In this document: positions 1,117 through 58,405 of the stretch, piece after piece
How positions within the stretch are numbered: the stretch's first letter is position 1
Layout of the letters: every line of letters starts with the position of its first letter
Source of the DNA: Oscillospiraceae bacterium
Lineage (GTDB): Bacteria; Bacillota; Clostridia; Oscillospirales; UBA929
Direction: 5' to 3'
DNA length: 64,000 nt
Assembly: GCA_031550325.1 (NCBI GenBank)
Contig: JAVBOR010000024.1
Span: 4,062-68,061 of the forward strand
Program-made: the position numbers and the translations under genes
Notes under the pieces: generated by a model
Seen by the model: the letters and a program-made list of their open reading frames with translations, nothing else
Database searches by the model: none
What the model was told of the DNA's origin: nothing

Positions 1117-1332
1117 TGTCAAAGAACCTTAGGTTCTTTGACAAAGCGGGGGTTTGGCTCGCGTCTTTGCAAAGACGCGCAAAGAAACGCTTTCCCGAAG
1201 TGAACCCGTGAAAGCGTTGTGGTTCAATCTTTTTCGATTTTCAGTCCAGCAAGGACCTGCCGGCTGCGCCGTCAGGCTCGACATGAAAACCGAAAAAGGA
1301 CGAGGGCGCGAGGACCTTTTTTGACAAAGCGG
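1117..1332 (+). repeat. Composite intergenic element copy R1 (modules A-B-C-D)
   Basis: Module A: TGTCAAAGAACC-tta-GGTTCTTTGACA at 1117-1143. Module B: GCGTCTTTGCAAAGACGC at 1161-1178. Module C: hairpin AACGCTTTC..GAAAGCGTT at 1186-1218. Module D: arms CTTTTTCGATTTTCA (1229-1243) and TGAAAACCGAAAAAG (1284-1298) around the core CAAGGACCTGCCGGCTGCGCCGTCAGGCTCGAC. Nearly the same sequence recurs at 43275-43480. Confidence 0.9.
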
Positions 1333-2625: not shown

Positions 2626-5600
2626 ATGAAACAGAGAAGCAGAATGACAAAGGCGTTGTCGCTCAGTATGGCGATAATGCTGCTTGTCGGGGCGCTGTCG
2701 GCGCCTATCGGCGCCGTGGCGGCCACGCCGTCGGCCCAGGCGTTTGACCCTGAATATCACCCGGGCGTTCAGAATCTGGACGACAGCTTCAAAATCGTGA
2801 TGGACAACTGCGACGCGGCGGCGGCCAGCGAGTACAGCCGCAACCCCAGCAACGCTGGTTCGGTGGTGATGGTCGATTCCCCCTTCGGCGAGAAATACGG
2901 CAAGGCTGTCGAGTTCTCCTATAACCTCAGCCAAGGCTACAACGGCGTCATCCGCCGCAGAGACGTGGGCGGGCTTCCGATGAACGGCGCCTGGACGGGT
3001 CTGGCAGCCATCGCGCTCTGGGTTCAGATCCCCGCGCCGGCTCCCAATCCCATCCTCCAGCTCAACACAGGCTCCGCTTGGCCGGGAACCTCGTACGAGG
3101 TCGACCTGAAAAAACTGCCCGACTTTGATGAGAATAACGGCGGGCCGCAGCATCTTTTTATTCCGATAGAAAAGTTTCTCATCAAGGACGGCACCACTCC
3201 CATCCCCAGCACGGAGAGCGTCATCTCGTTTGCGATGTATCTGGGCGGCTCGGGTACGGGCGTGGCCTATCTGGACGAGATTACGATGGTCTTTGCCGAA
3301 AACGTCACCGTTGACAACTTTAATAAGTATTTAGACAGCAGCGCCGTAAGCGCCGCCTGGGTCGCCAACACGAGCGGCGGCACCAACACCCGCGCGCTGG
3401 CGGCCTCGGATCACGGCAACGCCATGAACTTTACATACGACATGGCCACCTTCAACAGCCGCGGCTACACCGGCGCGACCAAGGCGGTCACCGACGACTG
3501 GGCCTCCACAGGTGCCGTTTCCCTTTGGTTTACCGGCGACGGGCTGGGGCAGGACATTCTTCTGCAAATTGCCAGCGGCAGCTATTACCATGAGGGCTGG
3601 GGCGCTTATATCCCCAACAGCCTGGAGGTTCACCTGAACGATCTGAAGAACTTTGATCCGGCCTCCACCTCGCCGCAGTATCTGTTCATTCCCATCTCGG
3701 AGTTTAAGCCCAAAGAGGTCGGCATGGAGTTCAAACCGGCCGAAATGGTCAGCTTCGGGCTGTTTGTCAACAAGCTTAGCAACATCGAGGCGTCCTCCTC
3801 GCTGGTCATTGATGAGATCATCCGCTATGTGCCGCATGGCACGGCACCGGTGGAGCAGGACATTATTTTCCGCTCGACCACTCTTTCGGCCAGCGGAAAC
3901 GACAGCCTTCTAACCGTTCTCAACGCCAACGCTACGGTTGCCTCGGAGGGCCGCGTGGTCGGCATGAAATATGCAAGCGACAACGCGGACATCCTGGCCA
4001 ATTACAGCGGGTTTGTGTTCAATGGCCCGTTCAAGGCCCAGGGAACCGTCAACGTTCGTCTGACCGACCTCAAGCTGGAGATCAAAGGCGCCGTGAAGGA
4101 CATTGCCCTCGAGCAGGAGCTCGTCATTCAGGTGCAAAATCTGCGCTCTCCGGTCAGTGTACTCAGCTACCTGACCTCGCTGTCCGGCAAAGGCGTGCTG
4201 ACGGCGATGCACAACAAAGAGCCCAACACGAACCCCCGCGAATCGACCGACAGACTTCTTAACCTGACCGGCGAAACCCCGGCCATCTGGAGTGGCGACT
4301 TCCTGTATCAGCGCCGCGACGTCACCGCCCGTCAGACGATGATCAATGAAGCCATCCGCCAGTGGAACGACGGCGCGCTGATTAACATCATGCTGCACGT
4401 CACCACCCCAAACCGCACGGTGGAGCAGGAGAAAACCGGCGCCAGCTGGGATCACCGCACGGCGGTCGACCCCAACCAGAACGGCGTGCAGGCCTACCTG
4501 TCCGAGGCGCAGTGGACCAGTCTTTTGACCGACGGCGAGCCGCTCAACGTTAACTGGAAGCTCCGTCTGGACGAGTACGCCGTCTATCTGCTGCAGCTCA
4601 AGGACGCGGGCGTGGTGCCCATGTTCCGTCCCTTCCATGAGCAGAATCAGCACGTGTTCTGGTGGAACGGCGTGCCTGAATACACCAAAGCCCTGTACCG
4701 CCTGACCTATGATTACCTTGTCGGCGTCAAGGGACTTGACAACATGATCTGGGTGTGGGACGTGCAGGATCTGCCCGTTGGCTATGGCGACGCCTATGGC
4801 TACGACGCCACCGACTGGTCGATCTTCAACCCCGGCGAGGAATACTGGGATATCTTCGCGCTGGACGTCTATGACGCTGCCGGATACACCCAGGCAAACT
4901 ATGAGCAGGCCCTCAGCGTCGCGGGCGACAAGCCCATCGCCATCGGCGAGTGCTGGAAGCTCCCGTCCCAAGAGACGCTGGCTGCCCAGCCCCAGTGGAT
5001 CTTCGCAATGCCCTGGGCCGGAGACACCTTCAGCCAGAACACCAACGAGGTCATCAAGACCTTCTATCAAAAGAACCTCTCGATCGAAGACACCCCCCGG
5101 TTTACGCTCAAAGAGCCTGAAAAATTCAAGATCGCCATTGACAACTTCGATTCCTACGCCGATTCGGCCGCGCTCAGCGCCATGTACACGCGAAACTCCA
5201 ACGGCGGCCAGAACACGGCGACGCTCATCGCCTCTCCGTTCGGCGCCGGTTTGGGTAACGCCATGGACTTTACCTATTCGTTCTCCAGCGGCTATTCGGG
5301 CCGTTACCGCTCGATAAACGGCTACTGGCCGGGCATTGAGGCCATTGAGCTTTGGATTCAGAACGACGCCTCCCATCAGGACATTCTGCTCCAGTTGTCC
5401 GACGGCGCGTCCTATGAGTGCCACCTGATGAACTTTGCCGACTTTGACGCAGACAGCACCGAGCCCCAGCATCTGGTGATCCCCATTTCCGAGTTTAAGC
5501 GCAAAGAGGGCAGCGGCACGCTGAACACCAAGGGCGTCACGTCGTTTGCCGTGTATGTCAACCAGCTGGCCGGAGGCGCGGGCGGCAAGCTCATCCTCGA

Positions 5601-7518
5601 TGAGATCACCGCCGTGTTCCCTGAAGAGCCCTTTATCCCCTCCGTGAAGTTTGGCACATCCGAAGTCCAGTCGGACGGCGCGAGCAACATCATCCGCGTG
5701 CTCAACGCCAATGCGGTCATGCCGGCGGGCGCGAAGATCGTGCAGGCGACTTACGAGTCCAGCAATCCCGCTGTTCTGCCCAACTACACCCGCTTTGTGC
5801 CCAAGGGCGACTTCAAGGCCTTAGGGGAAACCGTTGTGACCGTCAAGCAGGCCAAGATCTACCTGGACGGCGCCACCTTCACGATCGACGTCAACGCGGC
5901 GCTGACGGTTACGGTGTCCAGCCTGAGCGCCCCTGTGGACGTAGTTGATTATATGGCCGATCTGACCGGAAACGGCATCCTTTCGGCCATGCACCACGAC
6001 CAGTCTTACTCCAGCGCCGCCAACTGCGACACGCTGCATCAGCGCGTGGCCAACGAGTTCGGCGTGTATCCCGCTCTGTACAGCGCCGACTTCCTGACCG
6101 GCTCTACGGTTCCCTACCGTCAGAATATGATCAATGAAATCGTTCGCCAGTGGGATAACGGCAACCTTGTGCAGATCATGTTCCACGTCTCCCCGCCGCA
6201 ATACACCGTGGCGCAGGAGCGTCAGGGAAACTGGGGCGGCGACCAGGCGCACGAGACGCTGCCGCAGCCCAACCGCATCTACAGCTTCCTCTATAACGAC
6301 AACTGGACCGAGCTTCTGACCGACGGCACCCCGATGAACACCAACTGGAAACTCCGCATGGACGAGTACGCTAGGTTCCTGCAGCAGCTGGAAGACGCCG
6401 GTGTGTCCGTCATGCTCAGACCGTTCCATGAAATGAACCAGCATGTGTTCTGGTGGGGCGGCAGACCCGGCCTTGACGGCAGCGCGGGCCTGTACCGCAT
6501 GTTCCATGACTACATGGAAATCGAAAAGGGCCTGTCCAACATTATCTGGGTGTGGAACATTCAGGATCTGCCCGACAACTACGGATGGGCAGACGGCGAC
6601 GCGAAGTTTGACCGCTACGAAGGCCTTGAGGGCGGTCTGGCCGAGTACGACGCCAACGACTGGAATTCCTTCAATCCCGGCAAGGACTATTACGACGTTC
6701 TCTCCGTGGACTTCTACGACGCCGAGGGCTACGCCTCCCGTCACTATGAGCAGGCCGTGAGGATTGCCCTTGCAGACGGCGGCAAGCCGATCCAAATCGG
6801 CGAAACCTTCACCTTCCCGTCGCAGGAAACGCTGGCAGCGCAGCCCGACTGGACGCTGGCCATGCCTTGGGGCGTTCGCACCTGGAACTACAATACGTCC
6901 GCCGAAATGGCCACCTACTACGCAAACAGCCTTGGCGCCGAAGCCATGCCGCGCTTCGCCACCCGCGTCAACGAGCTGCCCTCCCTGACCCTCAGCCTGG
7001 ACAGCGCCTGCAAGACTCTCGTGGCGGGCTATGACGCCAACATCAAGCTCACGGTTTCGGGCTATGATGGCAGTGGCGAACTGTATGCCGCGCTGTACAG
7101 CGGCGCTGAGCGCATTTCCGAACCTGCAAAGCTCGTGGACGGCGTGGGCAAGTTCAAGGTTTCCATCCCCGAGGAGGCTGGGGACGAGCTGAGCGTCGGC
7201 GTGTTCTTCAAGGGCACCACCGTACTCTTCGCGTCCGAGACCATTGCCATCCGCCACTGCACCGATCTGTGGACGCCGATCCTCACCGAGCAGGACGGCC
7301 AGACCCTGGTTGTCTTCTCCGAGCAGATCTCGCTGGCGGCTGGCAAGTTCAAGGCGACCGTCAACGGCCAGGCGCGCGAGATGACCGTGAACGCGGACAA
7401 AAAGAGCCTGACCATTTCGGGCGGGCTGCTGGAAAGCGCGGACGTCCTTGTCATCGCGGGCATCAAGTATCCCACGCTCTTCCCGAGCTATTCCTTCACG
7501 TTTACGCTCCGCAAATAA
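2626..7518 (+). CDS. Secreted multidomain glycoside hydrolase with two GH26-type catalytic domains, three CBM-like beta-sandwich modules and Ig-like modules
   Basis: The track ORF starts at GTG 2617. I prefer ATG 2626, which sits 8 nt after AAAGGAG (2611-2617). Signal peptide: MKQRSRMTKALSLSMAIMLLVGALSAPIGAVAATPSAQA. The GH26-like acid/base motif occurs twice (RPFHEQNQHVFWWNG and RPFHEMNQHVFWWGG), each followed by a candidate nucleophile block (KPIAIGECW, KPIQIGETF). Confidence 0.8.
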   Translation: MKQRSRMTKALSLSMAIMLLVGALSAPIGAVAATPSAQAFDPEYHPGVQNLDDSFKIVMDNCDAAAASEYSRNPSNAGSVVMVDSPFGEKYGKAVEFSYNLSQGYNGVIRRRDVGGLPMNGAWTGLAAIALWVQIPAPAPNPILQLNTGSAWPGTSYEVDLKKLPDFDENNGGPQHLFIPIEKFLIKDGTTPIPSTESVISFAMYLGGSGTGVAYLDEITMVFAENVTVDNFNKYLDSSAVSAAWVANTSGGTNTRALAASDHGNAMNFTYDMATFNSRGYTGATKAVTDDWASTGAVSLWFTGDGLGQDILLQIASGSYYHEGWGAYIPNSLEVHLNDLKNFDPASTSPQYLFIPISEFKPKEVGMEFKPAEMVSFGLFVNKLSNIEASSSLVIDEIIRYVPHGTAPVEQDIIFRSTTLSASGNDSLLTVLNANATVASEGRVVGMKYASDNADILANYSGFVFNGPFKAQGTVNVRLTDLKLEIKGAVKDIALEQELVIQVQNLRSPVSVLSYLTSLSGKGVLTAMHNKEPNTNPRESTDRLLNLTGETPAIWSGDFLYQRRDVTARQTMINEAIRQWNDGALINIMLHVTTPNRTVEQEKTGASWDHRTAVDPNQNGVQAYLSEAQWTSLLTDGEPLNVNWKLRLDEYAVYLLQLKDAGVVPMFRPFHEQNQHVFWWNGVPEYTKALYRLTYDYLVGVKGLDNMIWVWDVQDLPVGYGDAYGYDATDWSIFNPGEEYWDIFALDVYDAAGYTQANYEQALSVAGDKPIAIGECWKLPSQETLAAQPQWIFAMPWAGDTFSQNTNEVIKTFYQKNLSIEDTPRFTLKEPEKFKIAIDNFDSYADSAALSAMYTRNSNGGQNTATLIASPFGAGLGNAMDFTYSFSSGYSGRYRSINGYWPGIEAIELWIQNDASHQDILLQLSDGASYECHLMNFADFDADSTEPQHLVIPISEFKRKEGSGTLNTKGVTSFAVYVNQLAGGAGGKLILDEITAVFPEEPFIPSVKFGTSEVQSDGASNIIRVLNANAVMPAGAKIVQATYESSNPAVLPNYTRFVPKGDFKALGETVVTVKQAKIYLDGATFTIDVNAALTVTVSSLSAPVDVVDYMADLTGNGILSAMHHDQSYSSAANCDTLHQRVANEFGVYPALYSADFLTGSTVPYRQNMINEIVRQWDNGNLVQIMFHVSPPQYTVAQERQGNWGGDQAHETLPQPNRIYSFLYNDNWTELLTDGTPMNTNWKLRMDEYARFLQQLEDAGVSVMLRPFHEMNQHVFWWGGRPGLDGSAGLYRMFHDYMEIEKGLSNIIWVWNIQDLPDNYGWADGDAKFDRYEGLEGGLAEYDANDWNSFNPGKDYYDVLSVDFYDAEGYASRHYEQAVRIALADGGKPIQIGETFTFPSQETLAAQPDWTLAMPWGVRTWNYNTSAEMATYYANSLGAEAMPRFATRVNELPSLTLSLDSACKTLVAGYDANIKLTVSGYDGSGELYAALYSGAERISEPAKLVDGVGKFKVSIPEEAGDELSVGVFFKGTTVLFASETIAIRHCTDLWTPILTEQDGQTLVVFSEQISLAAGKFKATVNGQAREMTVNADKKSLTISGGLLESADVLVIAGIKYPTLFPSYSFTFTLRK

Positions 7519-7558: not shown

Positions 7559-7671
7559 ACTAGGATCGCGTCTTCGCAAAGACGCGATCCTAGTCCTGTT
7601 TTGTCAAAAAGCCAAATGTTTTTTGTCAAGCTGACTCCGGGAGGGACGGCTTACGCCGTCCCTCCCGGAGT
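7559..7671. repeat. Two perfect long hairpins (module-B-type plus a 17-bp hairpin) between convergent genes
   Basis: First hairpin: ACTAGGATCGCGTCTT-cgca-AAGACGCGATCCTAGT (7559-7594, 16 bp, contains the module-B core GCGTCTT/AAGACGC). Then TTTTGTCAA occurs twice (7598-7629). Second hairpin: ACTCCGGGAGGGACGGC-ttac-GCCGTCCCTCCCGGAGT (7634-7671, 17 bp), ending 4 nt from the stop of the minus-strand ATPase gene. Probably a bidirectional terminator. Confidence 0.8.
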
Positions 7672-7675
7672 GTCA

Positions 7676-10065: not shown

Positions 10066-10069
10066 TGTG

Positions 10070-10443
10070 GCGCGAGCAGGCCTGTAAGCCGGATTCTGTC
10101 GTGGACAGCCATCTATCTGGGCCGTTTGTTGCCAAACGGCTCGTGCCACCTGGTCGGGAACGACGGCGCGCTGACGCGCGCCTTTGCCGGGCCGGGTGCG
10201 TTCCCTGTGCGGTGTTGCTCCGGATAGAGTTTGCAGGGTTTCCCGGTCTCCCGGGAAACCGGTGAGCTCTTACCTCGCCGTTCCACCCTTACCGGACATA
10301 AATCTCCGGCGGTATATTTCTGTTGCCCTTTTCCTGAAGTCGCCTTCGGCGGGCGTTACCCGCTATCCTTGCCCTGTGGAGCCCGGACTTTCCTCATACG
10401 CGGCCTTTCGGCACTGCGCACGCGGCTGCCTGGCCTGCTCGTG
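10070..10443 (-). ncRNA. rnpB: RNase P RNA, bacterial type A
   Basis: The reverse complement contains the universal GAGGAAAGTCCGGGCTCCACAGGGCA (plus-strand 10370-10396). It also has GGTAACGCCCG, GGTAAGGGTGGAACGGCGAGGTAAGAGCTCACC, and the 3' block CCACGACAGAATCCGGCTTACAGGCCTGCTCG. P1 pairs CGAGCAGGCC (5' end, 10432-10441) with GGCCTGCTCG (3' end, 10073-10082). Ends are good to about 5 nt. Confidence 0.93.
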
Positions 10444-16663: not shown

Positions 16664-17942
16664 GACCATGGATCGCGCGGCCATCCGGGCGCTGCAGCGG
16701 GAGCGCTTCGCCTGGACCATGGACCATATTTTTCGCTCGGCGCCTGTTCAGCGGCAAAAGCTTGTGGACGCCGGGATCAAGTCAGCCGGGGCGGTGACGC
16801 TGGAGGACATCGCGTCTCTGCCGTTTACGATGAAAAAAGACTTTCACCAGAACTACCCGTTCGGGATGTTCGCCGTTGAGCAAAGTGAGGTGGTGCGCCT
16901 GCAGGGAACGTCGGGCACCACCGGCAAGCCGACCATCGGCGGCTACACGCGGGAAGACCTGGAGATGTGGAAGGACCTCATTGCGCGCCTGGCCGTCTCG
17001 GTGGGCGTGGGCAGGCAGGACCTGGCGCAGGTCAGCTTCGGCTACGGGCTGTTTACCGGCGGGTTTGGGCTGCATCAGGGACTGGAGCATATCGGCGCGA
17101 CCGTTCTGCCCATGAGCTCGGGCAACACCGAAAAGCAGCTGATGATGATGCAGGACATGGGCACGACGGTGCTGATCGCCACGCCGTCCTATGCGCTTTA
17201 TCTGTCCGAGGTCGTGCGGGAGAAGGGCATCCGCGACAGCCTTAAGCTGCGCATCGGCCTGTTTGGCGGCGAGGGCTGCACCAAAGAGATGCGCCAGACG
17301 ATTGAAAACAATATGGGTATTATCGCCACGAACAACTACGGCCTGTGCGAGCTTACAGGGCCGGGCGTGTCGGGCGAGTGCCTTGAGCGTGACGGACTGC
17401 ACATTGCCGAGGATCATTTCTATCCCGAGATTATTAACCCAGATACCGGGGAGGTTTTGGGCGAGGGCGAGCGCGGGGAGCTGGTTGTCACCACGCTGAC
17501 GCGCCAGTGCGTGCCGCTGATCCGCTACCGCACACGCGACATCACAAGCCTTTCTTACGAGCCCTGCCGCTGCGGAAGAACCCATGTGCGCATGGCGCCG
17601 ACCTATGGACGCAGCGACGACATGCTGCTGATCAAGGGCGTCAACGTGTTTCCCTCTCAAATTGAAAGCGTACTCATCGGCATGGAGCATATTGGCCCGC
17701 ATTATTTGCTTTTTGTGCGGCATGAGGGCTACATGGACACGCTTGAGGTGCAGGTGGAGCTGGTGGACGCGCAGCTCTTGGAGCATTTCTCCATGCTGGA
17801 AAGGGTGCAGCGCACCATCAGGGAGAGGCTTCAGGTTGTGCTTGGCCTGCAGACGAAGGTCACGCTGGTCGCCCCGCAGACCATCGAGCGGTTCCAGGGA
17901 AAGGCCAAGCGCGTCATTGATTTGAGAAACAGGGCGGAATGA
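16644..17942 (+). CDS. Phenylacetate-CoA ligase family protein (PaaK-like), paralog 1
   Basis: TTG 16644 lies 9 nt after AAGGAGG (16628-16634) and overlaps the symporter 3' end. The resulting N-terminus MWQKKLETMDRAAIRALQ aligns with paralog 2 ([19 protein letters not shown]). The adenylation motif GTSGTTGKPT is present. Confidence 0.85.
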   Translation: MWQKKLETMDRAAIRALQRERFAWTMDHIFRSAPVQRQKLVDAGIKSAGAVTLEDIASLPFTMKKDFHQNYPFGMFAVEQSEVVRLQGTSGTTGKPTIGGYTREDLEMWKDLIARLAVSVGVGRQDLAQVSFGYGLFTGGFGLHQGLEHIGATVLPMSSGNTEKQLMMMQDMGTTVLIATPSYALYLSEVVREKGIRDSLKLRIGLFGGEGCTKEMRQTIENNMGIIATNNYGLCELTGPGVSGECLERDGLHIAEDHFYPEIINPDTGEVLGEGERGELVVTTLTRQCVPLIRYRTRDITSLSYEPCRCGRTHVRMAPTYGRSDDMLLIKGVNVFPSQIESVLIGMEHIGPHYLLFVRHEGYMDTLEVQVELVDAQLLEHFSMLERVQRTIRERLQVVLGLQTKVTLVAPQTIERFQGKAKRVIDLRNRAE

Positions 17943-17951
17943 GGTAACTTG

Positions 17952-19241
17952 ATGTACTGGAACAAAGAGATAGAGACCCTGCCTCGCGAGGAAATGCGCA
18001 GGCTGCAAAGCGTGCGCCTGCGTCAGGCAGTGGAGCGCGCGTACAATAATGTGGAGCCCTACAGGGCAAAAATGGACGCTTGCGGCCTGCGGCCTGAGGA
18101 CATCGGCTCCATCGACGATCTGTGCAAGCTGCCCATGACGCTCAAGAGCGACCTGCGCGACAACTACCCGTACGGGATGTTCGGCGCGCCGATGAACGAG
18201 ATTGTGCGCATTCACGCGTCGTCGGGCACGACGGGAAAGCAGACGGTTGTCGGCTACACGAAAAAAGACATTGAGATATGGAATGAGTGCATGGCGCGCA
18301 GCCTGACCATGTGCGGCGCGACAAAAGAGGACATTATTCACGTGTCGTACGGGTACGGCCTGTTTACGGGCGGCCTCGGCGGCCACTACGGCGGGGAGAC
18401 GATCGGTGCGGCCACGATCCCCGCGTCGACCGGGAACACGAAGCGTCAGCTCCAGATGTTTGAGGACTTTGGCTCGACGGTGCTGATGTGCACGCCGTCC
18501 TACGCGATGTATCTCGGCGACGCCGTGCAGGCCGCCGGCATCAGGGACAAGATCAAGCTGCGCATCGGCGTTCACGGCGCCGAGCCGTGGACGGAGGAAA
18601 TGCGCGCCGAAATCGAGGCGCGGCTCGGCGTGAAGGCATACGATATTTATGGGCTGTCGGAGGTTTCGGGCCCCGGCGTGTCCAACGAATGCGAGCACAG
18701 GTGCGGGCTTCACGTGCAGGAGGATCACTTCTTTCCCGAGATTGTCGATCCCGAGAGCAAGCTGCCCCTGCCCGACGGGACGCCCGGAGAGCTGGTGTTC
18801 ACCTGCCTTACCAAGGAAGGGCTGCCGCTGATCCGCTACAACACGCGCGACATCTGTACACTGAATCACGAGCCCTGCGCCTGCGGGCGCACCACGGTGC
18901 GCATGGGCAAGATCACGGGCCGCAGCGACGACATGCTGATCATCCGCGGTGTCAACGTCTTCCCCTCGCAGATTGAGAGCGCGCTTTTGTCGGTGGGAGA
19001 GGTCTCGCCGTACTACATGATCATTGTCGACCGCGTGGATACCCTGGATACGCTTGAAATTCAGGTGGAAATGCCTGAGAACTTTCCCTTTGACGAGGTG
19101 CGCAGGGTGGAGGCGCTTGAGCGCAGAGTGCACCGCGAGGTGATGAGTGCCCTGGGGATATCAGCCGTCGTCAGGCTGGTCGCGCCGTACTCGCTCGAAC
19201 GCAGCGAGGGCAAGGCCAAACGGGTCATAGACAAGCGCTGA
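17952..19241 (+). CDS. Phenylacetate-CoA ligase family protein (PaaK-like), paralog 2
   Basis: ATG 17952 lies 7 nt after GAGG. Sequence: [49 protein letters not shown]. Confidence 0.88.
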
Positions 19242-26431: not shown

Positions 26432-27222
26432 GTACCGTGCGGGACGTTGTCACAGCGCTGGAGGCTTACGCGCCGCTGCGCGCAAAGATGAGCGGCGACA
26501 ACTGCGGACTTTTGCTTGGCCGCGCGGGTCAAACGGTGGAGAAAGCTTTGATTGCCCTTGACGTCACTCGCGCCGTGGTGGATGAGGCCAAGGCCTATGG
26601 CGCGCAAATGGTGATCACGCACCACCCTCTGTTTTTTCAGGTCAGCGCCCTGACGGACGAGACGCTCGAGGGACGCAACGCGCTTTTGCTGGCCGAGGCC
26701 GGGCTGGCGGTTTGCTGCATGCACACCAACCTGGACTTTGCCGCCAAGGGCGTCAATTACGCGCTGGCGCGCGCTGTCGGACTGTCCGGGCCGTACGAGG
26801 CGCTCAAGCCATTTGACTGGGCCAAAGAGGGCGACCCGCCGGGCGAGGGCCTGATGGGGCGCCTGGATGCGCCGCAGGACACCGAGAGCTTTGCGGCAAG
26901 CGTGCAGAAGGCACTTGCCAGCGCCGGAATACGCCTGCACGACGCCGGCAGGCCCGTGCGCCATGTCGGCCTGTGCAGCGGCTCGGGGGGAAGCCTCCTT
27001 GACGCCGCTCTTGAGCAGGGCGTGGACACCTTTTTAACCGGAGAGGTCAAGTATAACCACTACCTCGCGGCGGACGCCTTTGGCCTGAACCTGATCGAGG
27101 CCGGCCACTTTGAGACCGAGAACGTTATCTGCGAGCCACTGCGCGCCTATCTGCAGGCGAGTCTTCCCGGGATTAATTTTGGGCTTTCAGGCCTTCACAA
27201 GGAGCCGTATCGATGCCTTTAG
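26428..27222 (+). CDS. Nif3-like dinuclear metal centre protein (GTP cyclohydrolase 1 type 2 homolog)
   Basis: ATGA overlap with trmK. Sequence: ITHHPLFF..MHTNLD..GLCSGSGGSL..FLTGEVKYNH..AGHFETE. Confidence 0.88.
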   Translation: MSTVRDVVTALEAYAPLRAKMSGDNCGLLLGRAGQTVEKALIALDVTRAVVDEAKAYGAQMVITHHPLFFQVSALTDETLEGRNALLLAEAGLAVCCMHTNLDFAAKGVNYALARAVGLSGPYEALKPFDWAKEGDPPGEGLMGRLDAPQDTESFAASVQKALASAGIRLHDAGRPVRHVGLCSGSGGSLLDAALEQGVDTFLTGEVKYNHYLAADAFGLNLIEAGHFETENVICEPLRAYLQASLPGINFGLSGLHKEPYRCL

Positions 27223-28913
27223 ACGCTTTGGTGGTCACCGCGCTGGCCGGAGAGCTGCGCCGTGAGCTGACGGGTGCGCGCGTGGATAGGATTGTTCAGC
27301 CCGCCCGCGATGAGATTCAGCTTGCGCTGCATACGGCCTCCGGCAATGTGAAACTGCTGATTTCGGCCGGAATGCGGTATCCGCGGGTTCATCTGACCAC
27401 GGTTGCGCGCGAAAATCCCGCGCTGCCGCCGATGTTTTGTATGCTTCTGCGCAAGCACCTGCAGGGAGCGCGCCTGTGCGGGCTGACGCAGCCGCCGCTG
27501 GAGCGTGTGCTGGATCTGGAGTGGGAGTGCGTGGACGAGCTTGGCGAGCCGGTTCGCAGGCATCTTATATGCGAGCTGATGGGGCGTCACTCCAATGTGA
27601 TTTTGGTCGGGTCGGACGGGCGCATTATGGACTGTATGCGCCGCGTGGACAGTGAAATGTCAGAGCGGCGGCAGGTGCTGCCCGGGCTTTTCTACGCGCT
27701 GCCGCCCGGACAGGGAAAGCTCAGCCCGATGGCGGTCTCTGAAGACGAGCTCGCCGCGCTTTGGACGCAAAAGCCACCCGAAACGCCTCCGGAGGACTGG
27801 CTTCTCCATACCTTTGGCGGCCTGTCCCCGCTGATTTGCCGGGAGCTGGCCTTTCAAGGGATGCCCGAGGCGCTGCTCAGGCTGCGCAGGACGGTTTGGG
27901 AGGGGATGTTTACCCCCTTTATGCTGTGCGAAAAAGACGAGATCAAGGATTTTTCCTGTGTCCCGATCGGCCAGTATGGTGCGCTGTATTCGTGCCGGCA
28001 GGCGCAGAGCTTTTCAGCGCTGCTGGATGAGTTTTACACAAAGGGCGATCAGCGCGAACATATGCGCCAGCGCGGGCAGTCGCTGCAAAAGACAGCCGCG
28101 GCAAACCGTGACCGCGCGCTGCGCAGAGTGGCGCTGCAGGAGCAGGAGCTTGCGCAGGCCATGAACCGCGAACGCCTGCGGGAATACGGCGACCTGCTCA
28201 TGGCCAATCTGCACATCGTGGGGCGCGGCGCGGCGCAGGTGGAGGTGGAGGATTTCTATCACCCCGAGTGCGCCCGGGCGGTCATTGCGCTCGACGCACA
28301 CAAGTCCCCGCAGCAAAACGCCGCAAAATACTACAAGGACTACGCCAAGGCCAAGAACGCCGAACAGCTGCTGGCCATCCAGATGGAGCGCGGTCGGCAG
28401 GAAGCGCAATACTGGGAGAGCGTGCTGGAAGAACTCGGCCGCGTTTCCAGTGAAAAAGAGCTGACCGAGATTCACGAGGAGCTGTCTCCGCCGCCGCGCA
28501 GCCGAAAGCAAAAGGAAAAGGTTCCGCAGCCGCACGCGTTTGTGTCGACGGAAGGCATTCGGTTTTACGCGGGGCACAACAACAGGCAAAACGACTATCT
28601 AACCTTTCGTCTGGCGGCACGTGGCGACCTGTGGATGCACGCCCAAAAGTTCCCCGGCTGCCATGTTGTCATCGACTGCTCTGAGCGCCGTCCCGGAGAC
28701 GATACTCTGCTGGAGGCTGCCGTGGTGGCCGCCACGCTGTCTCAGGGCCGCAACAGCCCGAAGGTTCCCGTGGACTACACGCTTGTCCGCCATGTCAAAA
28801 AACCGCCGGCCGCCGCCGCCGGCATGGTGATTTACGATCAGTTCAAGACGATTCTGGTGGAGCCGGATGAGGCGCTGCTGACGAGACTGCGCCGCGAAGA
28901 CCGCCGCCGCTGA
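27213..28913 (+). CDS. rqcH: NFACT-family ribosome quality-control protein RqcH (FbpA-like)
   Basis: 566 aa. Sequence: MPLDALVVTALAGELRRELTGARVDRIVQPARDEIQL..LMGRHSNVILV..AKYYKDYAKAKNA..GHNNRQNDYLTF..DLWMHAQKFPGCHVVI. Confidence 0.88.
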   Translation: MPLDALVVTALAGELRRELTGARVDRIVQPARDEIQLALHTASGNVKLLISAGMRYPRVHLTTVARENPALPPMFCMLLRKHLQGARLCGLTQPPLERVLDLEWECVDELGEPVRRHLICELMGRHSNVILVGSDGRIMDCMRRVDSEMSERRQVLPGLFYALPPGQGKLSPMAVSEDELAALWTQKPPETPPEDWLLHTFGGLSPLICRELAFQGMPEALLRLRRTVWEGMFTPFMLCEKDEIKDFSCVPIGQYGALYSCRQAQSFSALLDEFYTKGDQREHMRQRGQSLQKTAAANRDRALRRVALQEQELAQAMNRERLREYGDLLMANLHIVGRGAAQVEVEDFYHPECARAVIALDAHKSPQQNAAKYYKDYAKAKNAEQLLAIQMERGRQEAQYWESVLEELGRVSSEKELTEIHEELSPPPRSRKQKEKVPQPHAFVSTEGIRFYAGHNNRQNDYLTFRLAARGDLWMHAQKFPGCHVVIDCSERRPGDDTLLEAAVVAATLSQGRNSPKVPVDYTLVRHVKKPPAAAAGMVIYDQFKTILVEPDEALLTRLRREDRRR

Positions 28914-28981
28914 CGCATTTTTATTTTACTCCCGAGGCATGATTGGCCGGCATTGGAGGATACTACGCCTATTGTGTGCCG

Positions 28982-29190
28982 TTTTGTCAAAGAACCCTCG
29001 GTACTCTGACAAAACGAGAGAAGGATTGCGTCTTTGCGAAGACTGTAAAAAAGCGTTTTCCCGGAGTGGATCCATGAAGGCATTATGTTTTCAATCTTTA
29101 TTGGTTTTGGTCAGGCAAGGACCTGCCGGCAGCGCCATTTGGCTCGACGCGACAACTGACAAAGGGCGCGCAAAGGTCTTTTTTGACACG
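28982..29190 (+). repeat. Composite intergenic element copy R2 (A-B-C-D, partly degenerate)
   Basis: A: TGTCAAAGAACC..GGTACTCTGACA (28985-29011), followed by AAACGAG. B remnant: tgcgtctttgcgaagact. C remnant: ttttcccggagtggatcc. D core: CAAGGACCTGCCGGCAGCGCCATTTGGCTCGAC (29116-29148). Tail: GGTCTTTTTTGACA. Confidence 0.8.
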
Positions 29191-29265
29191 CTATACCCTA
29201 TCACGTGGATTCCGCTTTGCGTGGTACACAAGCTGCGAATCGTATGAAACGGAGCCTATTGACCT

Positions 29266-31407
29266 ATGCTGAAAAAACAGAAGAACTCTGAGCAGTTTAT
29301 GAACCCTATGCGCGATGTGCCGGTTTTTCTGGCCATACGGCAAGCGCTGACCCTCATGATCCCTTTGTTTATGGCGGGGTCTTTTGCTGTTCTGATCAAC
29401 AATCTCCCCATCGCGGCTTTCCAAAACGCCATGGAGAATTTGTTCGGGGACAACTGGAAGAATTTTGGCGCCTATTTGTACCAGGGTACATTTGCGATTA
29501 TGTCGGTTGGCGTCCTCATTGCGGTGAGCTACAATTTTGCAGCAAACGACAAGATGTCCCGTCTGCAGAACATCAATCCCTTTTTATGCTCACTCATTTC
29601 GCTGACATGTTTCTTCACGCTGCTTTACGCGCCCGACCAAACGCTGAGCCTGCGCTGGTTCGGCCCGTTGGGGCTGTTTGTGGCAATTGTAACGGCGCTG
29701 GTTTCCGTGAAGGTTTTCCAGCTTCTTTACCGTGTAAATGCGCTACATTTTAATGTCTACAGTGACGCTGCGGACTCGACCGTCAACCAGGCGATGAGCT
29801 CACTGTTTCCAGCGCTGATCACCATTGTCCTGTTTGTGGCGATCCGCATGCTGCTTGACCTGCTGGGCATTCAGGATATCCACGCGACGCTGGAGGAAGG
29901 ACTGCGGCAGCTGTTTATCAGGATGCCGGTGACCATTTGGACTGCCCTGCTGTTTGTAATGAGTACCCACTTTTTTTGGTTTATGGGCATGCATGGAAAC
30001 AACATCCTGGAACCTGTGGTGCAGAACTCGTTCGGGCCGGCGCTTTTGGTCAATCAAAACCTTGTTGCGCAGGGGCTGCCGCCCTCCGAGGTGTTCACCA
30101 AGCAGTTTTTTGACGTATTCGTGTATTTGGGCGGCTCCGGCGCGACCTTGTGCCTGCTGGTTGCGCTGTTTATCGGCGCGCGCCGCAGCAACGCGCGGCA
30201 GATCGCTGCAATTTCGGCGCTGCCCAGCGTCATCAATGTCAACGAGATGCTGATGTATGGGTTGCCGCTGATTTTCAACATGTATTTTATCATTCCGTTT
30301 ATCGGTGTGCCGCTGCTGCTGACGCTGACATCTTACGCTGCCATGTCGCTTGGCCTTGTCCCGCTGACCGTGGAGTCCGTCGAATGGACCACGCCCATAT
30401 TTCTGGGCGGCTACATGGCCACGAACTCTGTGGCGGGCATTGCCCTGCAGGCGTTTAACCTGACGCTTGGCGTCATGGCCTATCTGCCGTTTGTACGTAT
30501 GCATGAACGCCGTTTGGCGCGCGACAACGAACGCACGCTCAAGTCGCTCCAGCAGGAAACGCTGACCTTCAATCTGCGCCATTCCAAAGAGTTTCTCAAC
30601 AGGCGGGACGCCGAGGGAAACCTGGCGCGCATCCTCGCCAGAGACATGGAGCAGGATTTAAGCGAGAAGAAGATGCGGCTGGAGTACCAGCCGCTGGTGA
30701 ACAATGAGGGCCGCGTCGAGGCCGTCGAGGCGCTGCTTCGCTGGACACACGAGACCTACGGCGATATCGCTTCGCCCATGGTCATTCAGCTTGCGGAAGA
30801 GAGCGGACTGATTCATGAGTTCGGACTGTGGATTTTCCAGGAGTCGATTGACGCGCTGAAGGTGATGCGCGCTGCCGGCCTGGATATTGTGATCTCGGTC
30901 AACATCACGCCAGTACAGCTTGACTGGCCTGAGTTTGCGCCCCGCCTCGAGAAAATGCTGAACCAGTCCGGGCTGCCGCCCGACAAGGTGGAGATTGAAA
31001 TCACCGAACAGGTGGCGCTGGGGGGCCTCGACAGGCTCAAGCAGATCCACCGCCTGCGCTCCATCGGCGTTCGGATGGCCATGGACGACTTTGGCATGGG
31101 ACACAGCTCGCTGATGTACCTGAAGGAGTTTGACCTGAACACGATCAAGCTTGACGGCGGGCTGGTGCGCGAAGTGCTCACCAATCAAAACTGCCGAGAG
31201 ATCATAAACTCCATTGTCCACCTGAGCCGCTCGATGAATCTTCAGACCGTCGCCGAGTTCGTCGAAACCGAGCAGCAGCGGGACGCGCTGCAGGAGCTGG
31301 GCTGCAACTTGTACCAGGGCTATTACTACAGCCGTTCTCTTCCGCTGGATCGGCTTGTGGAGTACGCGCTGGCGCAGAACGCGTCCCATCCCGCGCACCA
31401 CGCGTAA
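29266..31407 (+). CDS. PTS EIIC-like (lactose/cellobiose family) membrane domain fused to an EAL cyclic-di-GMP phosphodiesterase domain
   Basis: 713 aa. The N-terminal ~410 aa are polytopic, with FLAIRQALTLMIPLFMAGSFAVLINNLP, which resembles CelB/ChbC EIIC. The C-terminal ~240 aa carry YQPLV..VEALLRW, N..VN, EITE, DDFGMGHSSL, KLDG, EFVETEQQ and QGYYYSR. All EAL catalytic blocks look intact. Confidence 0.8.
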   Translation: MLKKQKNSEQFMNPMRDVPVFLAIRQALTLMIPLFMAGSFAVLINNLPIAAFQNAMENLFGDNWKNFGAYLYQGTFAIMSVGVLIAVSYNFAANDKMSRLQNINPFLCSLISLTCFFTLLYAPDQTLSLRWFGPLGLFVAIVTALVSVKVFQLLYRVNALHFNVYSDAADSTVNQAMSSLFPALITIVLFVAIRMLLDLLGIQDIHATLEEGLRQLFIRMPVTIWTALLFVMSTHFFWFMGMHGNNILEPVVQNSFGPALLVNQNLVAQGLPPSEVFTKQFFDVFVYLGGSGATLCLLVALFIGARRSNARQIAAISALPSVINVNEMLMYGLPLIFNMYFIIPFIGVPLLLTLTSYAAMSLGLVPLTVESVEWTTPIFLGGYMATNSVAGIALQAFNLTLGVMAYLPFVRMHERRLARDNERTLKSLQQETLTFNLRHSKEFLNRRDAEGNLARILARDMEQDLSEKKMRLEYQPLVNNEGRVEAVEALLRWTHETYGDIASPMVIQLAEESGLIHEFGLWIFQESIDALKVMRAAGLDIVISVNITPVQLDWPEFAPRLEKMLNQSGLPPDKVEIEITEQVALGGLDRLKQIHRLRSIGVRMAMDDFGMGHSSLMYLKEFDLNTIKLDGGLVREVLTNQNCREIINSIVHLSRSMNLQTVAEFVETEQQRDALQELGCNLYQGYYYSRSLPLDRLVEYALAQNASHPAHHA

Positions 31408-31411
31408 GGCT

Positions 31412-31620
31412 GCCAAAGAACCTTTGGTCTAAGCGGTGCTTAAAGAAGAGACGAGCTGTGTTCGCCCGCGGGCGGTCAATGACCGCCCCTATATTGGCTC
31501 CCCGTCTCAACGCGGCTTTTGGCGAGGTTTTTGACAGTCTGAGGGCGTTCTCGGATTCACTCCGGGAACGCCCTGTTCTGGGCCTTTTTGACGGCTTTCC
31601 GCCGCCCGGTGCAGGCGGGC
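31412..31620. repeat. Mosaic of repeat modules (degenerate A, reversed C) and short GC hairpins
   Basis: CCAAAGAACCtttGGTC (31414-31430). GGGCGGTCA-a-TGACCGCCC (31469-31487). Reversed module C: AGGGCGTTC-tcggattcactccgg-GAACGCCCT (31542-31574). CCGCC-cggtgca-GGCGG (31601-31617). Confidence 0.7.
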
Positions 31621-33352: not shown

Positions 33353-33361
33353 GTCAGCCCG

Positions 33362-33664
33362 CTGTCAAAGAACCTTTTACGGTCAGAGAACCTTTGGTTC
33401 GCTGACAAAACGAGGGATGGATTAAACCGCTGTGGCGGCATGAAGGGAAACGGTTTCGAGAAATGAATTCCCGAAACCGTTGTGGTTCCTATTTTTCCTG
33501 GATTCGGTCCAGCAAGAACCTGCCGCCTGCGGCGTCAGGCTCGACGCGAATCCAGGAAAAGGACGAAGGCGCAAAGCGCTTTTTTGAAAGCCTGAGGCGT
33601 TCCCGGATTCATTCCAGGAACGCCTCAGGCTCAGGCTGTCAGAGAACCTTTGGTTCTCTGACAA
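33362..33664 (+). repeat. Composite intergenic element copy R3 plus an extra reversed C module and an extra A palindrome
   Basis: A: GTCAGAGAACC-ttt-GGTTCGCTGAC (33382-33406), followed by AAAACGAG. C: AACGGTTTCG..CGAAACCGTT (33449-33481). D arms: TTTTCCTGGATTCG (33493-33506) and CGAATCCAGGAAAA (33547-33560) around the conserved core. Reversed C: CTGAGGCGTTCC-cggattcattcca-GGAACGCCTCAG (33592-33628). A: TGTCAGAGAACC-ttt-GGTTCTCTGACA (33637-33663), followed by AAACGAA. Confidence 0.9.
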
Positions 33665-33786
33665 AACGAAAGGAGCGCGCGTGGGCATTTTTGCCAGGGT
33701 TATGTAACCAAAATGTTTGTTGAGTTCTCTGTCGAGCTATGATAGACTGTAGGGGAAATTGGGATAAAACGGAGTGTATAAAGGGT

Positions 33787-37220: not shown

Positions 37221-37243
37221 ACGCCCATACGGTTTACAACTCA

Positions 37244-37276
37244 GGGCGGCGGACAGTCAAGGCTTGTCCGCCGCCC
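37244..37276 (+). terminator. GC-rich hairpin downstream of fba (probable terminator), followed by repeat-module fragments
   Basis: GGGCGGCGGACA-gtcaaggct-TGTCCGCCGCCC (12 bp, perfect). Only a weak T-run follows. The next 70 nt contain TTTGTCAAAG fused to AGTGAATCCGTGAAA (A half-site plus C loop) and GGACTTTGACAG. Confidence 0.5.
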
Positions 37277-37383
37277 CTGCTTTGTCAAAGTGAATCCGTG
37301 AAACCCGAAAAGCGCGGGAGCACAAAGGACTTTGACAGCCTGCCTGCCCACGCGGCGGGGCGTTCTTTCCGGCGCGCCTTTCC

Positions 37384-41873: not shown

Positions 41874-43360
41874 CGTACGAACTGACGGTAGGGCTGGAGA
41901 TCCACGTGGAACTCGACACCGAGAGCAAGGCGTTTTGCGCATGCCCCAACCGCTTCGGAGCCGCGCCGAACACGCTGATTTGCCCTGTCTGCGCCGGTTT
42001 TCCCGGCGCACTGCCCGTACTTAACGAGTCTGTCGTTGAGCGCGCGGTGCGCGTGGGCAAGGCTTTTGGCTGCACCATCAACATGGTCAGCCGACATGAC
42101 CGGAAAAACTACTATTATCCTGATTTGCCAAACGCCTATCAAATCACCCAGCAGCGCGTTCCGATCCTGTCCGGCGGCGCGTTTTTTCTGTATGAGGAGG
42201 GCGGGCTTTCCTCCGTTGCGCTTGACCACATCCACATGGAGGAGGACGCCGGAAAGCTGCTGCACGGCGCCGGGGACGACTATACGCGCATTGACTTCAA
42301 CCGCGCGGGCGTTCCGCTTTTGGAGATCGTCACACAGCCCTGTCTGCACACGCCCGAGCGGGCGCAGGCGTTTTTGGAGGCGCTGCGTCAGACACTGGTG
42401 GAGCTGGAGGTTACGGACGGCAAGATGCATGAGGGCTCCATCCGCTGTGACGTCAATGTCTCGGTCGGCAGCGGCGCTCAGATGGGCGTCAAGGTTGAGC
42501 TCAAAAACATCGGCACCTTTTCGGGCGTGCGGCGCGCCATCGCCTTTGAGTTCAAGCGACAGACGCGGCTTTTGGAAAAAGGCGATCCGGTTGTGTCGGA
42601 GACGCGCCGGTGGGACGATATGGCCGGGATGACCCTTGCCATGCGCGAAAAGGAGAGCCTGCAGGATTACCGGTTTTTCTTTGAGCCGAATTTGCAGCCC
42701 ACGGTTGTTTTGCAGGAGCTGTGTGACCGGGTTATCGTTGCCGAGCTTCCGCAGGCACGTCTGCTGCGGTATGTCCGCGAGTTTTCTCTGCCTCCCGCGG
42801 AGGCCGCCCTTTTGTGCGTGCGGCCCCGATGGGCCTACTTCGAGGCCTGTCTTGTTTGCGGGGCGCCGCCGCGCGCCGCCGCCAACTGGATTTGCGGAGA
42901 GCTTGCGCGGCTTTCAGGCGGCAATGTGGACGCGCTGCCGCCCGAAAGACTCTGTCAGCTGATACGCTGCGTCGAGCAGGGCGCTGTGAGCAGCTCGGCC
43001 GGGAAAGCCGCGCTGGCGGCCATGCTGGAGTTTGGCTGGACGGCAAACCGGGCGATCGGAGAGCTAGGGCTGGACCAGATGCGCGACAACGACGCGCTCA
43101 GCGCACTTGCCGCGCAGATTGTCGCCGACCATCCCCAGCCGGCGGCGGCATATCGGGCGGGAAAAACCAACGCGCTGGACTTTCTGGTGGGGCGCGGGAT
43201 GAAGGCGTCCGGCGGGCGGGCCGATCCCGCGGCGTTGCGGGCGCTGCTGAAAAGCGCTCTGGAGTGCTGCAGTCTGTCAAAGAACCACGAGTTCTTTGAC
43301 AAAGCGGGGGCAGGATCGCGTCTTTGTGAAGACGCGCAAAGAAACGCTTCCCCGGAGTGA
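41870..43360 (+). CDS. gatB: Asp/Glu-tRNA amidotransferase subunit B, with a repeat-derived C-terminal extension
   Basis: ATGA overlap with gatA. Sequence: MTYELTVGLEIHVELDTESKAFC..R.DRKNYYYPDLP..YQITQ. The conserved C-terminus ends near ..RADPAALRALLKSAL. The last ~30 codons (ECCSLSKNHEFFDKAGAGSRLCEDAQRNASPE) and the TGA stop lie inside repeat copy R4. Confidence 0.9.
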   Translation: MTYELTVGLEIHVELDTESKAFCACPNRFGAAPNTLICPVCAGFPGALPVLNESVVERAVRVGKAFGCTINMVSRHDRKNYYYPDLPNAYQITQQRVPILSGGAFFLYEEGGLSSVALDHIHMEEDAGKLLHGAGDDYTRIDFNRAGVPLLEIVTQPCLHTPERAQAFLEALRQTLVELEVTDGKMHEGSIRCDVNVSVGSGAQMGVKVELKNIGTFSGVRRAIAFEFKRQTRLLEKGDPVVSETRRWDDMAGMTLAMREKESLQDYRFFFEPNLQPTVVLQELCDRVIVAELPQARLLRYVREFSLPPAEAALLCVRPRWAYFEACLVCGAPPRAAANWICGELARLSGGNVDALPPERLCQLIRCVEQGAVSSSAGKAALAAMLEFGWTANRAIGELGLDQMRDNDALSALAAQIVADHPQPAAAYRAGKTNALDFLVGRGMKASGGRADPAALRALLKSALECCSLSKNHEFFDKAGAGSRLCEDAQRNASPE

Positions 43361-43480
43361 ATCCGGGAAAGCGTTGTGGTTCTGTCTTTATCGGTTTTCA
43401 GAGAGGCGAGGACCTGCCGGCTTTGCCGTCAGGCTCGACGTGAAAACCGATAAAGGACGAGGATGCGAGGGGCTTTTTGG
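43275..43480 (+). repeat. Composite intergenic element copy R4 (A-B-C-D, best preserved)
   Basis: A: TGTCAAAGAAC-cacga-GTTCTTTGACA (43275-43301). B: GCGTCTT-tgtg-AAGACGC (43318-43335). C: AAACGCTT-CCCCGGAgtgaaTCCGGG-AAGCGTT (43342-43375). D arms: CTTTATCGGTTTTCA (43386-43400) and TGAAAACCGATAAAG (43441-43455), a perfect 15 bp. Confidence 0.9.
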
Positions 43481-43499
43481 GAACGGTATAGTTTAATGA

Positions 43500-45423: not shown

Positions 45424-45492
45424 ACAAGCTGGGCTCTCCCGGATTCACTCCGTGAGAGCCCAGCTTGTAGACAAACCGAAGATTTGTCTACA
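45424..45492 (-). repeat. Reversed module C hairpin (15-bp stem) plus an A-like palindrome
   Basis: ACAAGCTGGGCTCTC-ccggattcactccgt-GAGAGCCCAGCTTGT (45424-45468). GTAGACAAA-ccgaaga-TTTGTCTAC (45468-45492), followed by AAAACGA. Confidence 0.85.
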
Positions 45493-45555
45493 AAACGATG
45501 ATAAAGTGATCGGCTCTGTGGAGCTTCACAAAAAAACGTTTCTCTGTAAACCGCC

Positions 45556-56611: not shown

Positions 56612-56802
56612 AGGGTTTAGTCCAGAGGGGCTGTATTGTCGAAAGGGGTGTTCATGGAAGTTTCAAAAAAGCATTCAAAGTCGGGGCAATCTTCAGTGGA
56701 GCCCTGCTGGTCAGCAGACTCCTGAATCTGGCCATTAAGGCTTTGAGAAGTATAAATCAGGATGCGAATAAAGAGCAGGCGTCGTCTTGACGGCCTCAGC
56801 CA

Positions 56803-56925
56803 GGAAGGACTTTCCCGGAGTGAATCCAGGAAAGTCCTTCCATCGTTTTGTCCAAACTTCGCAAACAGCCTTGGCGGTTAAACCTGAACTCTAGTTTTGT
56901 CAAAGAATCTCAGGTTCGTTGACAG
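56803..56925 (+). repeat. Module C hairpin (13-bp stem) plus an imperfect A palindrome
   Basis: GGAAGGACTTTCC-cggagtgaatcca-GGAAAGTCCTTCC (56803-56841). TCGTTTTGTC is the reverse of the GACAAAACGA flank. TTTTGTCAAAGAATC-tca-GGTTCGTTGACA (56895-56924). Confidence 0.85.
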
Positions 56926-56940
56926 CCTGACGCGGCATGG

Positions 56941-58155: not shown

Positions 58156-58186
58156 CGTAATTCTTCTTTCTCCAATCTTTTTCGGC

Positions 58187-58345
58187 TTTGTACAAGAACC
58201 GCGGTTTTTGTACAAAGCCGGAGGTTGCAGAGAGAGCTTTCCCGGATTGAATCCGTGAAAGCTCTGCGATTTAATCTTTTTTGGCATCGGCCGGCAAGGA
58301 TCTGCCAGCTGCGCCATCAGACTCGACGTGAATCCGCGAAAAAGG
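58187..58345 (+). repeat. Composite intergenic element copy R5 (variant A, C, degenerate D)
   Basis: A variant: TTTGTACAAGAACC-gc-GGTTTTTGTACAAA (58187-58216). C: AGAGCTTTC-ccggattgaatccgt-GAAAGCTCT (58232-58265). D core: CAAGGATCTGCCAGCTGCGCCATCAGACTCGAC (58295-58327). Confidence 0.8.
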
Positions 58346-58405
58346 ATGGGAGCATAAAAGGGGCTTGCTACAGGCTGTTCAAAGAAGCGGAGGCCCCTTG
58401 ACGGC

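Follow-up and report, generated by a model that had tools for sequence, protein, structure and literature searches.

IS1630-type elements insert into variable inverted repeats, often at the 3' ends of genes, and duplicate these targets as direct repeats (PMC2853133, PMC3317919, PMC7648426) with a length of 16-26 bp (PMC3317919). IS1630 of Mycoplasma fermentans is an IS30-family element, which according to the title of its description targets and duplicates inverted repeats (Calcutt 1999, PMID 10601219), and ISMhom-1 behaves like it (PMC7648426). Both are autonomous elements of low-GC Mollicutes, 1.2-1.4 kb in length, with 27-bp inverted repeats and an IS30-type transposase. E. coli IS30 has two kinds of favoured target, near-palindromic hot spots and the inverted repeats of IS30 itself (PMC9333248). 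Bacterial MITEs (Correia, RUP, ERIC, Chunjie, MITEAba12 and others) are small, non-coding, multi-copy elements with terminal inverted repeats and target duplications, but the duplications described for them are short and fixed, at 2-9 bp. A 2024 review of MITEs in prokaryotes refers neither to MITEs derived from IS30 nor to duplications that span a hairpin (PMC10969869). Modular hairpin-forming intergenic repeats are also represented by pneumococcal BOX and enterobacterial BIME/REP elements.

The window analysed here, a stretch of 64,000 nt from an Oscillospiraceae bacterium, contains one modular intergenic element in five full copies (R1 to R5, 197-221 nt) and at least six fragment sites. As a whole, the data are probably best explained by a non-autonomous DNA transposon (MITE) of ~200-220 bp, which targets hairpins and duplicates the target hairpin, and of which the window copies are old relics. 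The MITE kind and the IS1630-like insertion behaviour are already known, and the family is apparently unnamed. The review (PMC10969869) makes no mention of a miniature, ORF-less element of high-GC Clostridia whose duplications have the size of a hairpin and reach 34 bp.

The window is ordinary chromosome with a GC content of 59%, and carries gatB, an NFACT-family gene, glycoside hydrolases and the RNase P RNA. The latter (bacterial class A, 10069-10441, minus strand) matches its model over the full length with 268.9 bits; no other Rfam family reaches the gathering threshold in the window. Two pairs of diverged direct repeats (4329-4671 and 6117-6462; 16818-17670 and 18129-18981), with 72-75% identity, are unrelated to the element. 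One pair is an internal domain duplication in the gene for a 1633-aa CBM/GH26 protein, and the other lies between adjacent paralogous genes.

A nhmmer search found all five full copies on the plus strand (1107-1339, 28970-29202, 33367-33599, 43260-43498 and 58172-58388), with E-values from 6e-73 to 6e-51. Since the profile was built from those same five copies, these values reflect mutual similarity and not independent detection. A degenerate pattern for the core of hairpin D has five matches in the window, which are exactly the five copies, against 0.07 expected from shuffles. The repeat family is thus genuine and far beyond chance, and the five full, co-oriented copies reported in the initial annotation are confirmed. 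In the MAFFT alignment of ~240 columns the mean column identity is 73%, and the copies are mutually 70-88% identical. The module order described earlier (A-B-C-D, followed by a tail) is found in the copies, except that R5 lacks module B. No ORF is conserved in strand or frame across the copies, in agreement with the earlier view that the element has no credible coding potential.

R1, of 221 nt, spans 1112-1332 on the plus strand. Its left end, CAGGC followed by TGTCAAAGAACC, occupies 1112-1128, and its right end, GGACCTTTTTTGACAAAGCGG, occupies 1312-1332; between them are hairpins A (1117-1143), B (1161-1178), C (1186-1218) and the long hairpin D (~1228-1299). R2 (28981-29196, plus strand), which is also found in the Logan contig L025, begins 68 nt past the stop codon of the NFACT-family gene (27213-28913). 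R3 (33376-33592, plus strand) ends in ...TTTTTTGAAAGCCTGA, and an additional solo left-end sequence, TCAGCCCGCTGTCAAAGAACC, lies immediately upstream of it at 33354-33374. R4 (43270-43484, plus strand) is inserted at the 3' end of gatB. R5 (58181-58377, plus strand), between two minus-strand genes, has a variant hairpin A (TGTACAAGAACC...GGTTTTTGTACA) besides missing hairpin B.

All of the isolated modules listed in the initial annotation (at 7559-7671, 31412-31620, 37277-37345, 45424-45492 and 56803-56925) are real, with some changes in detail. Weaker partial nhmmer matches were obtained at 7567-7635 (minus strand), 33627-33674, 56779-56938 and 31542-31577. The first site is an A-B fragment on the minus strand (7567-7636), which adjoins a GC-rich hairpin (7637-7673) that is itself located between convergent genes. 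Immediately past the stop codon of a PTS-EIIC/EAL gene, three pieces occupy 31406-31573 on the plus strand: a left-end fragment (31406-31437), a right-end fragment (GGTTTTTGACAGTCTGA, 31526-31542) and an adjoining C-type hairpin in reverse orientation (31543-31573). On the plus strand at 33595-33674, a further reversed C-type hairpin (33595-33625) adjoins the right end of R3, and is followed by an additional solo left end, TCAGGC with hairpin A (33626-33674). The plus-strand site at 37277-37345 is an internally deleted mini copy that has kept both ends (CTTTGTCAAAG ... CTTTGACAGCCTG), and it immediately follows a GC-rich hairpin (37232-37270). At 45431-45497, on the plus strand, a reversed C-type hairpin (45431-45461) precedes a variant hairpin A (TGTAGACAAACC-GAAG-ATTTGTCTACA). 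Finally, near 56.8 kb on the plus strand, a forward C-type hairpin (56799-56837) is accompanied by a solo hairpin A (56893-56931), with the right terminus ...GTTGACAGCCTGA in its right arm. The isolated modules are therefore truncated, internally deleted or end-only derivatives (the latter at 33.6, 45.5 and 56.9 kb), together with separate C-type hairpins that adjoin element ends (at 31.5, 33.6 and 45.4 kb). Solo-end hairpins and 5'-truncated copies both occur among the derivatives of the element.

In a scan of one genome per GTDB species with the D-core pattern, the element was found in a single other genome, that of the uncultured Oscillospiraceae MAG EPI_MAG_00258 (GCA_031556035.1), where it occupies 12 loci. 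Two further matches, in Acidimicrobiales, are due to chance. Between the MAG copies and the window, similarity extends along the entire element but is absent from the flanks, at the DNA as well as the protein level. The D-core pattern had no match in IMG/VR or the JGI metagenomes, and blastn against plasmid and phage collections gave no match. Rfam gave no match to the element at the gathering threshold; in E-value mode, no score exceeded 25 bits, compared with thresholds of 35-74. The C-loop pattern found three isolated hairpins in metagenomes, on unrelated contigs, which are probably convergent. On one JGI contig, unrelated and of higher GC content (Ga0196972_1008164, L023, 921-1003), a hairpin TGTGAAAACACC-TGC-GGTGTTTTCACA is followed by a C-type hairpin GCGCTTTCCCGGAGTGAATCCGGGAAAGCGC; the two resemble modules A and C (nhmmer E = 5e-8), which could reflect convergence or a distant relationship.

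The MAG copies are 221-222 bp each, start with TCAGACCGATGACAAAC and end with GTTTGTCTTCACTCTGA. Terminal inverted repeats and sharp boundaries are seen in at least nine near-identical copies, the boundaries being sharp because the copies are nearly identical to one another. The inverted repeat is imperfect: of 17 positions, 13 agree between TCAGACCGATGACAAAC and the reverse-complemented right end, TCAGAGTGAAGACAAAG. The window ends also form imperfect terminal inverted repeats. The left one reads (T)CAGGC-TGTCAAAGAACC and the right one GGnnCTTTTTTGACA(GCCTGA), also written GG..CTTTTTTGACA(GCCTGA). The complete right terminus is kept at R3 and at 31526-31542, 37326-37342 and 56913-56929, and the window sequence CAGGCTGTCAAAGAACC matches the right ends at 33578-33594, 37326-37342 and 56913-56929. 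The two ends of the element show covariation from one host to the other (helix 1: GC:7, AU:4-5). Hairpin A is formed where the left end pairs with an inverted copy of the end sequence inside the element, and the palindromic modules B, C and D follow. This arrangement bears on the sequence TTTGACAAAGCGG, which was reported to bracket R1 as a possible target duplication. It is indeed present at 1137-1149 and 1320-1332, but as end-sequence reuse and not as a target duplication, because the former site is this inverted copy inside the element, and the latter is the right end itself. Both window-type ends also carry a perfect TTGACA hexamer that reads outwards, at the left end on the minus and at the right end on the plus strand (1112-1128, 1320-1326 and other ends). 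Together with flanking -10 boxes, these hexamers could in principle form hybrid promoters; promoter prediction returned no complete one. In A-B, a sigma-54 promoter was rejected, because by eye the GG-to-GC spacing is off by one.

The MAG copies are flanked by abutting direct repeats of ~18-34 bp, which are locus-specific and in each case represent a different GC-rich hairpin. The repeats match at 31/31 positions for L006/L016, 28/28 for L013, 34/34 for L004, 26/27 for L001 and L003 (one copy split over two contig ends) and 17/22 for L002. L012 and L008 have degraded copies of the hairpin, with 14/18 and 15/19 matches by manual count in the flank sequences, and L011 has no such repeat. In L012, an inverted solo end, TTCAGTCTGTAGACAAAGTC (5217-5255), is located downstream of the MAG copy and its hairpin, and suggests a second, mostly deleted insertion beside the first. 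The insertion sites are intergenic GC-rich inverted repeats just 3' of genes, that is, putative terminators. They were rejected as integron attC sites, because core sites are not conserved between the target hairpins.

The comparison with an empty site in related DNA, which the initial annotation had called for, could be made at the pfkA locus. In the filled MAG allele (L016), the pfkA-hisE spacer has 298 nt and consists of a hairpin, the 221-bp element and the hairpin again. In the empty allele (L017, a Logan contig from run SRR23967709), PfkA is identical to the L006 neighbour, and the spacer has 46 nt, with one copy of the 31-bp hairpin GTTATCCCCCCGCTTTCAGCGGGGGGATAAC and without the element; the flanks of the two alleles are otherwise identical. 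The allele pair demonstrates that the element is mobile and that the whole target hairpin is duplicated on insertion, and it is evidence of recent activity. For a second MAG locus, at a GH1 gene, no alternative contig is on record.

The window copies lack recognisable flank repeats and flanking hairpin repeats. All full copies but one, and most fragments, are located ~70 nt or less from the 3' end of a gene or adjoin a hairpin. Searches for empty sites with window proteins recovered only filled or broken sites in Logan contigs, in which the window copies are present and not polymorphic. An orthologous comparison of the window spacers is impossible, since the closest GatB relative is only 52% identical. 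We read the window copies as older, diverged and fixed relics of insertions.

With its terminal inverted repeats, its target-site duplications and the empty site on record, the element is identified as a MITE-type transposon, and its membership of the MITE class is very probable; its copies, at 197-222 bp, have a fitting size. Like other bacterial MITEs it is mostly intergenic, has truncated and nested derivatives, and can be folded into a long hairpin, but its duplications of ~18-34 bp set it apart. The initial annotation had taken a match to an IS or MITE with inverted repeats and target duplications, or to a named Rfam family, as a refutation of its view. The MITE features are present, but the match to a named family is absent, in line with its statement that no named family was recognised. 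The analogy to BOX or BIME that it had drawn is not supported. The element resembles these repeats in that modules can be absent (B in R5) or stand alone, but for BOX and BIME no terminal inverted repeats accompanied by target duplications have been demonstrated, and they have no sequence similarity to it. Moreover, REPs alternate in orientation in BIMEs and are RAYT-associated, and neither feature is seen here.

IS1630 and ISMhom-1 share with the element the duplication of variable inverted repeats (16-26 bp for the former, ~18-34 bp here), but the resemblance is behavioural only. The window and MAG element has 221 bp, no ORF and inverted repeats of ~17 bp, and occurs in Clostridia with 59% GC; the untranslated ends of ISMhom-1 (108 and 140 bp) sum to a similar size. 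The dual target preference of E. coli IS30 could explain the clusters of ends and hairpins at ~31.4-31.6, 33.6 and 56.8 kb. A sequence within the right repeat of IS30, CTGTCAATGCAAC, matches CTGTCAAAGAACC in the element at 10 of 13 positions, which may be chance. IS30 makes 2-bp duplications, and its terminal TGTAGATTCAAT tip is not common to the element. An IS30-family partner is conceivable, though less likely than not. Long or variable duplications are also generated by the IS1182, IS1634 and IS1549 families.

In the proposed mechanism, a transposase supplied in trans would bind the element ends and attack both strands of the target at positions that flank the palindrome. The palindrome would plausibly be extruded as a cruciform, which could bring the two attack points close in space, and gap repair would then copy the whole hairpin. 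Such an insertion leaves a hairpin beside each of the flanking genes and should therefore be close to neutral. The data do not prove a simple cut at the cruciform base, because in some copies the duplicated segment is off-centre relative to the palindrome, and the longest palindromes exceed it in length.

A tblastn search with E. coli InsI for an IS30-type transposase gave nothing below E = 1 in 212 kb (the window plus loci), which upholds the earlier statement of no transposase in the window as far as the IS30 type is concerned. The same 212 kb contain no second pair of matching ends around an ORF. In view of the missing autonomous partner in this sequence, the transposase family can only be inferred. 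A PHROG scan of 63 MAG ORFs for a transposase was uninformative. The sole transposase remnant is an IS66 fragment (DDE_Tnp_IS66, profile positions 112-192), to which a 5'-truncated MAG copy comprising only C, D and the right end is fused in frame (L014, contig JAVBTT010000002.1, 493-1003). A second truncated copy in L014 (5740-5890) begins at almost the same internal point.

The internal hairpins raise the question whether selection acts on RNA. A set of 12 distinct copies from both hosts is 94.7% paired over hairpins B, C and D and the helix between the ends, and two MAG subfamilies differ in C by compensatory changes. Compensatory changes have conserved B, C and D in two distant hosts and between the MAG subfamilies, which is more than a purely selfish MITE would need. 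The element could accordingly be seen as a multi-copy structured ncRNA gene or as a cis-acting RNA module of 3' UTRs or terminators, selected at the RNA level and only secondarily mobile. Such a module would account for the degree of pairing in B, C and D (92-97%), for 17 pairs changed on both sides (compared with 10.2 ± 1.7 in shuffles and 2-4 in slid controls), for the nearly invariant loop of C and apex of D in the two hosts, and for folding z-scores of -3.8 (plus strand) and -4.8 (minus strand). However, neither strand is favoured, given the even balance of 13 G-U pairs and 14 A-C mismatches, and the recently active MAG copies are almost wholly Watson-Crick paired. The element contains no promoter or terminator consensus, has no Rfam match and occurs in every orientation to the neighbouring genes, and its transposition is demonstrated by the empty site and the target duplications. 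The observations favour palindromes B, C and D that are kept at the DNA level over a strand-specific RNA, and we consider the RNA explanation improbable. For the transposon that we prefer, one possibility is that the modular string of hairpins was built by absorbing duplicated host hairpins when a new end was recruited; the palindromes may instead serve the transposase, as binding or structural sites. In a more far-reaching version, C, D and the left-end hairpin A would be cis-acting structural signals for a structure-specific transposition machinery, perhaps not of the classical IS30-type DDE kind, which recognises extruded hairpins at its own ends and targets. It could be a ruler-like integrase that attacks both palindrome borders (compare Cas1-Cas2 at CRISPR repeats), or C-D could encode an RNA targeting cofactor. 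We regard this version as unlikely.

Orientation bears on a further alternative. The GC skew is positive from 8 to 64 kb, so that the plus strand, which carries all five full copies, is the G-rich, leading-type strand. Agreement of five out of five copies has a two-sided chance of 1/16, and the 13 MAG copies split 7:6 with respect to the local GC skew. The significance that had been attached to the co-orientation in the window is not borne out by these numbers, and the co-orientation is probably chance; a replication-linked orientation bias was rejected because of the MAG ratio. The same ratio argues against single-strand (HUH) transposition, in which a REP/BIME-like or IS200/IS605-derived palindrome-associated element would be moved as ssDNA by a Y1 transposase. 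Movement of this kind would explain the many imperfect hairpins and the plus-strand co-orientation on the G-rich strand, and the solo C-type hairpins, with conserved loops and variable stems, are REP-like. Yet the element has both terminal inverted repeats and a target duplication, there is no conserved tetranucleotide beside the insertion points, and full copies keep the fixed A-B-C-D order within these boundaries. HUH-mobilised elements are not known to make target duplications or to have terminal inverted repeats, and this origin is very unlikely. We give even less credence to a SINE-like retroelement that inserts by target-primed reverse transcription, although it would account for duplications that vary from ~18 to 34 bp, for the start of 2 of the 13 MAG copies just upstream of module C as 5' truncation, and for a T-rich 3' tail, as the window copies end in CTTTTTTGA. 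The MAG copies lack a T-run at the 3' end, one of the truncated copies is fused to the IS66 transposase fragment, which suggests rearrangement, and no reverse transcriptase was seen. In addition, the ends are inverted repeats that co-vary between hosts, and the duplications always span a hairpin and not a random site. A class C group II intron was rejected, in view of the target duplication and the lack of a ribozyme match.

The two hosts of the transposon are distant. Beyond its own database entry, the closest relative of the window GatB is 52% identical, which places the host in a deep-branching clostridial lineage without sequenced close relatives. A nearest GatB relative with 51% identity comes from GCA_031546715.1. 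The PfkA proteins of GCA_031546715.1 and the MAG are 83% identical, and by this indirect route the GatB proteins of the two element-bearing hosts are estimated to be probably ~50-51% identical. R1 and the MAG copies share 79-82% nucleotide identity over ~130 nt, and are thus as close as R1 is to its own genomic siblings. The organisms of the window (L015, L024, L025) and of the MAG (L017) are both present in the Logan run SRR23967709, and hence co-occur. Given this co-occurrence and the identity between R1 and the MAG copies, horizontal spread of the family would be the simplest reading.

The element also has consequences for assembly and annotation. Contigs L015 (in R1), L024 (in R5), L001 and L003 end inside copies, so that the element fragments short-read assemblies. 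The gatB frame has no stop codon before R4, and runs 29 codons into the element up to a stop at 43358-43360. The GatB_Yqey domain ends at ~43262, and the public protein P0001, with 496 aa compared with 473-480 aa in relatives, includes the element-encoded tail. The element can thus rewrite gene ends, in this case by 29 element-encoded codons that were accepted by public annotation.

The findings extend the 'target and duplicate inverted repeat' mode of transposition from a few IS30-type elements of Mollicutes to a miniature, ORF-less element in high-GC, uncultured Clostridia. Landing on a terminator-like hairpin, and regenerating one on each side, amounts to a safe-harbour strategy.
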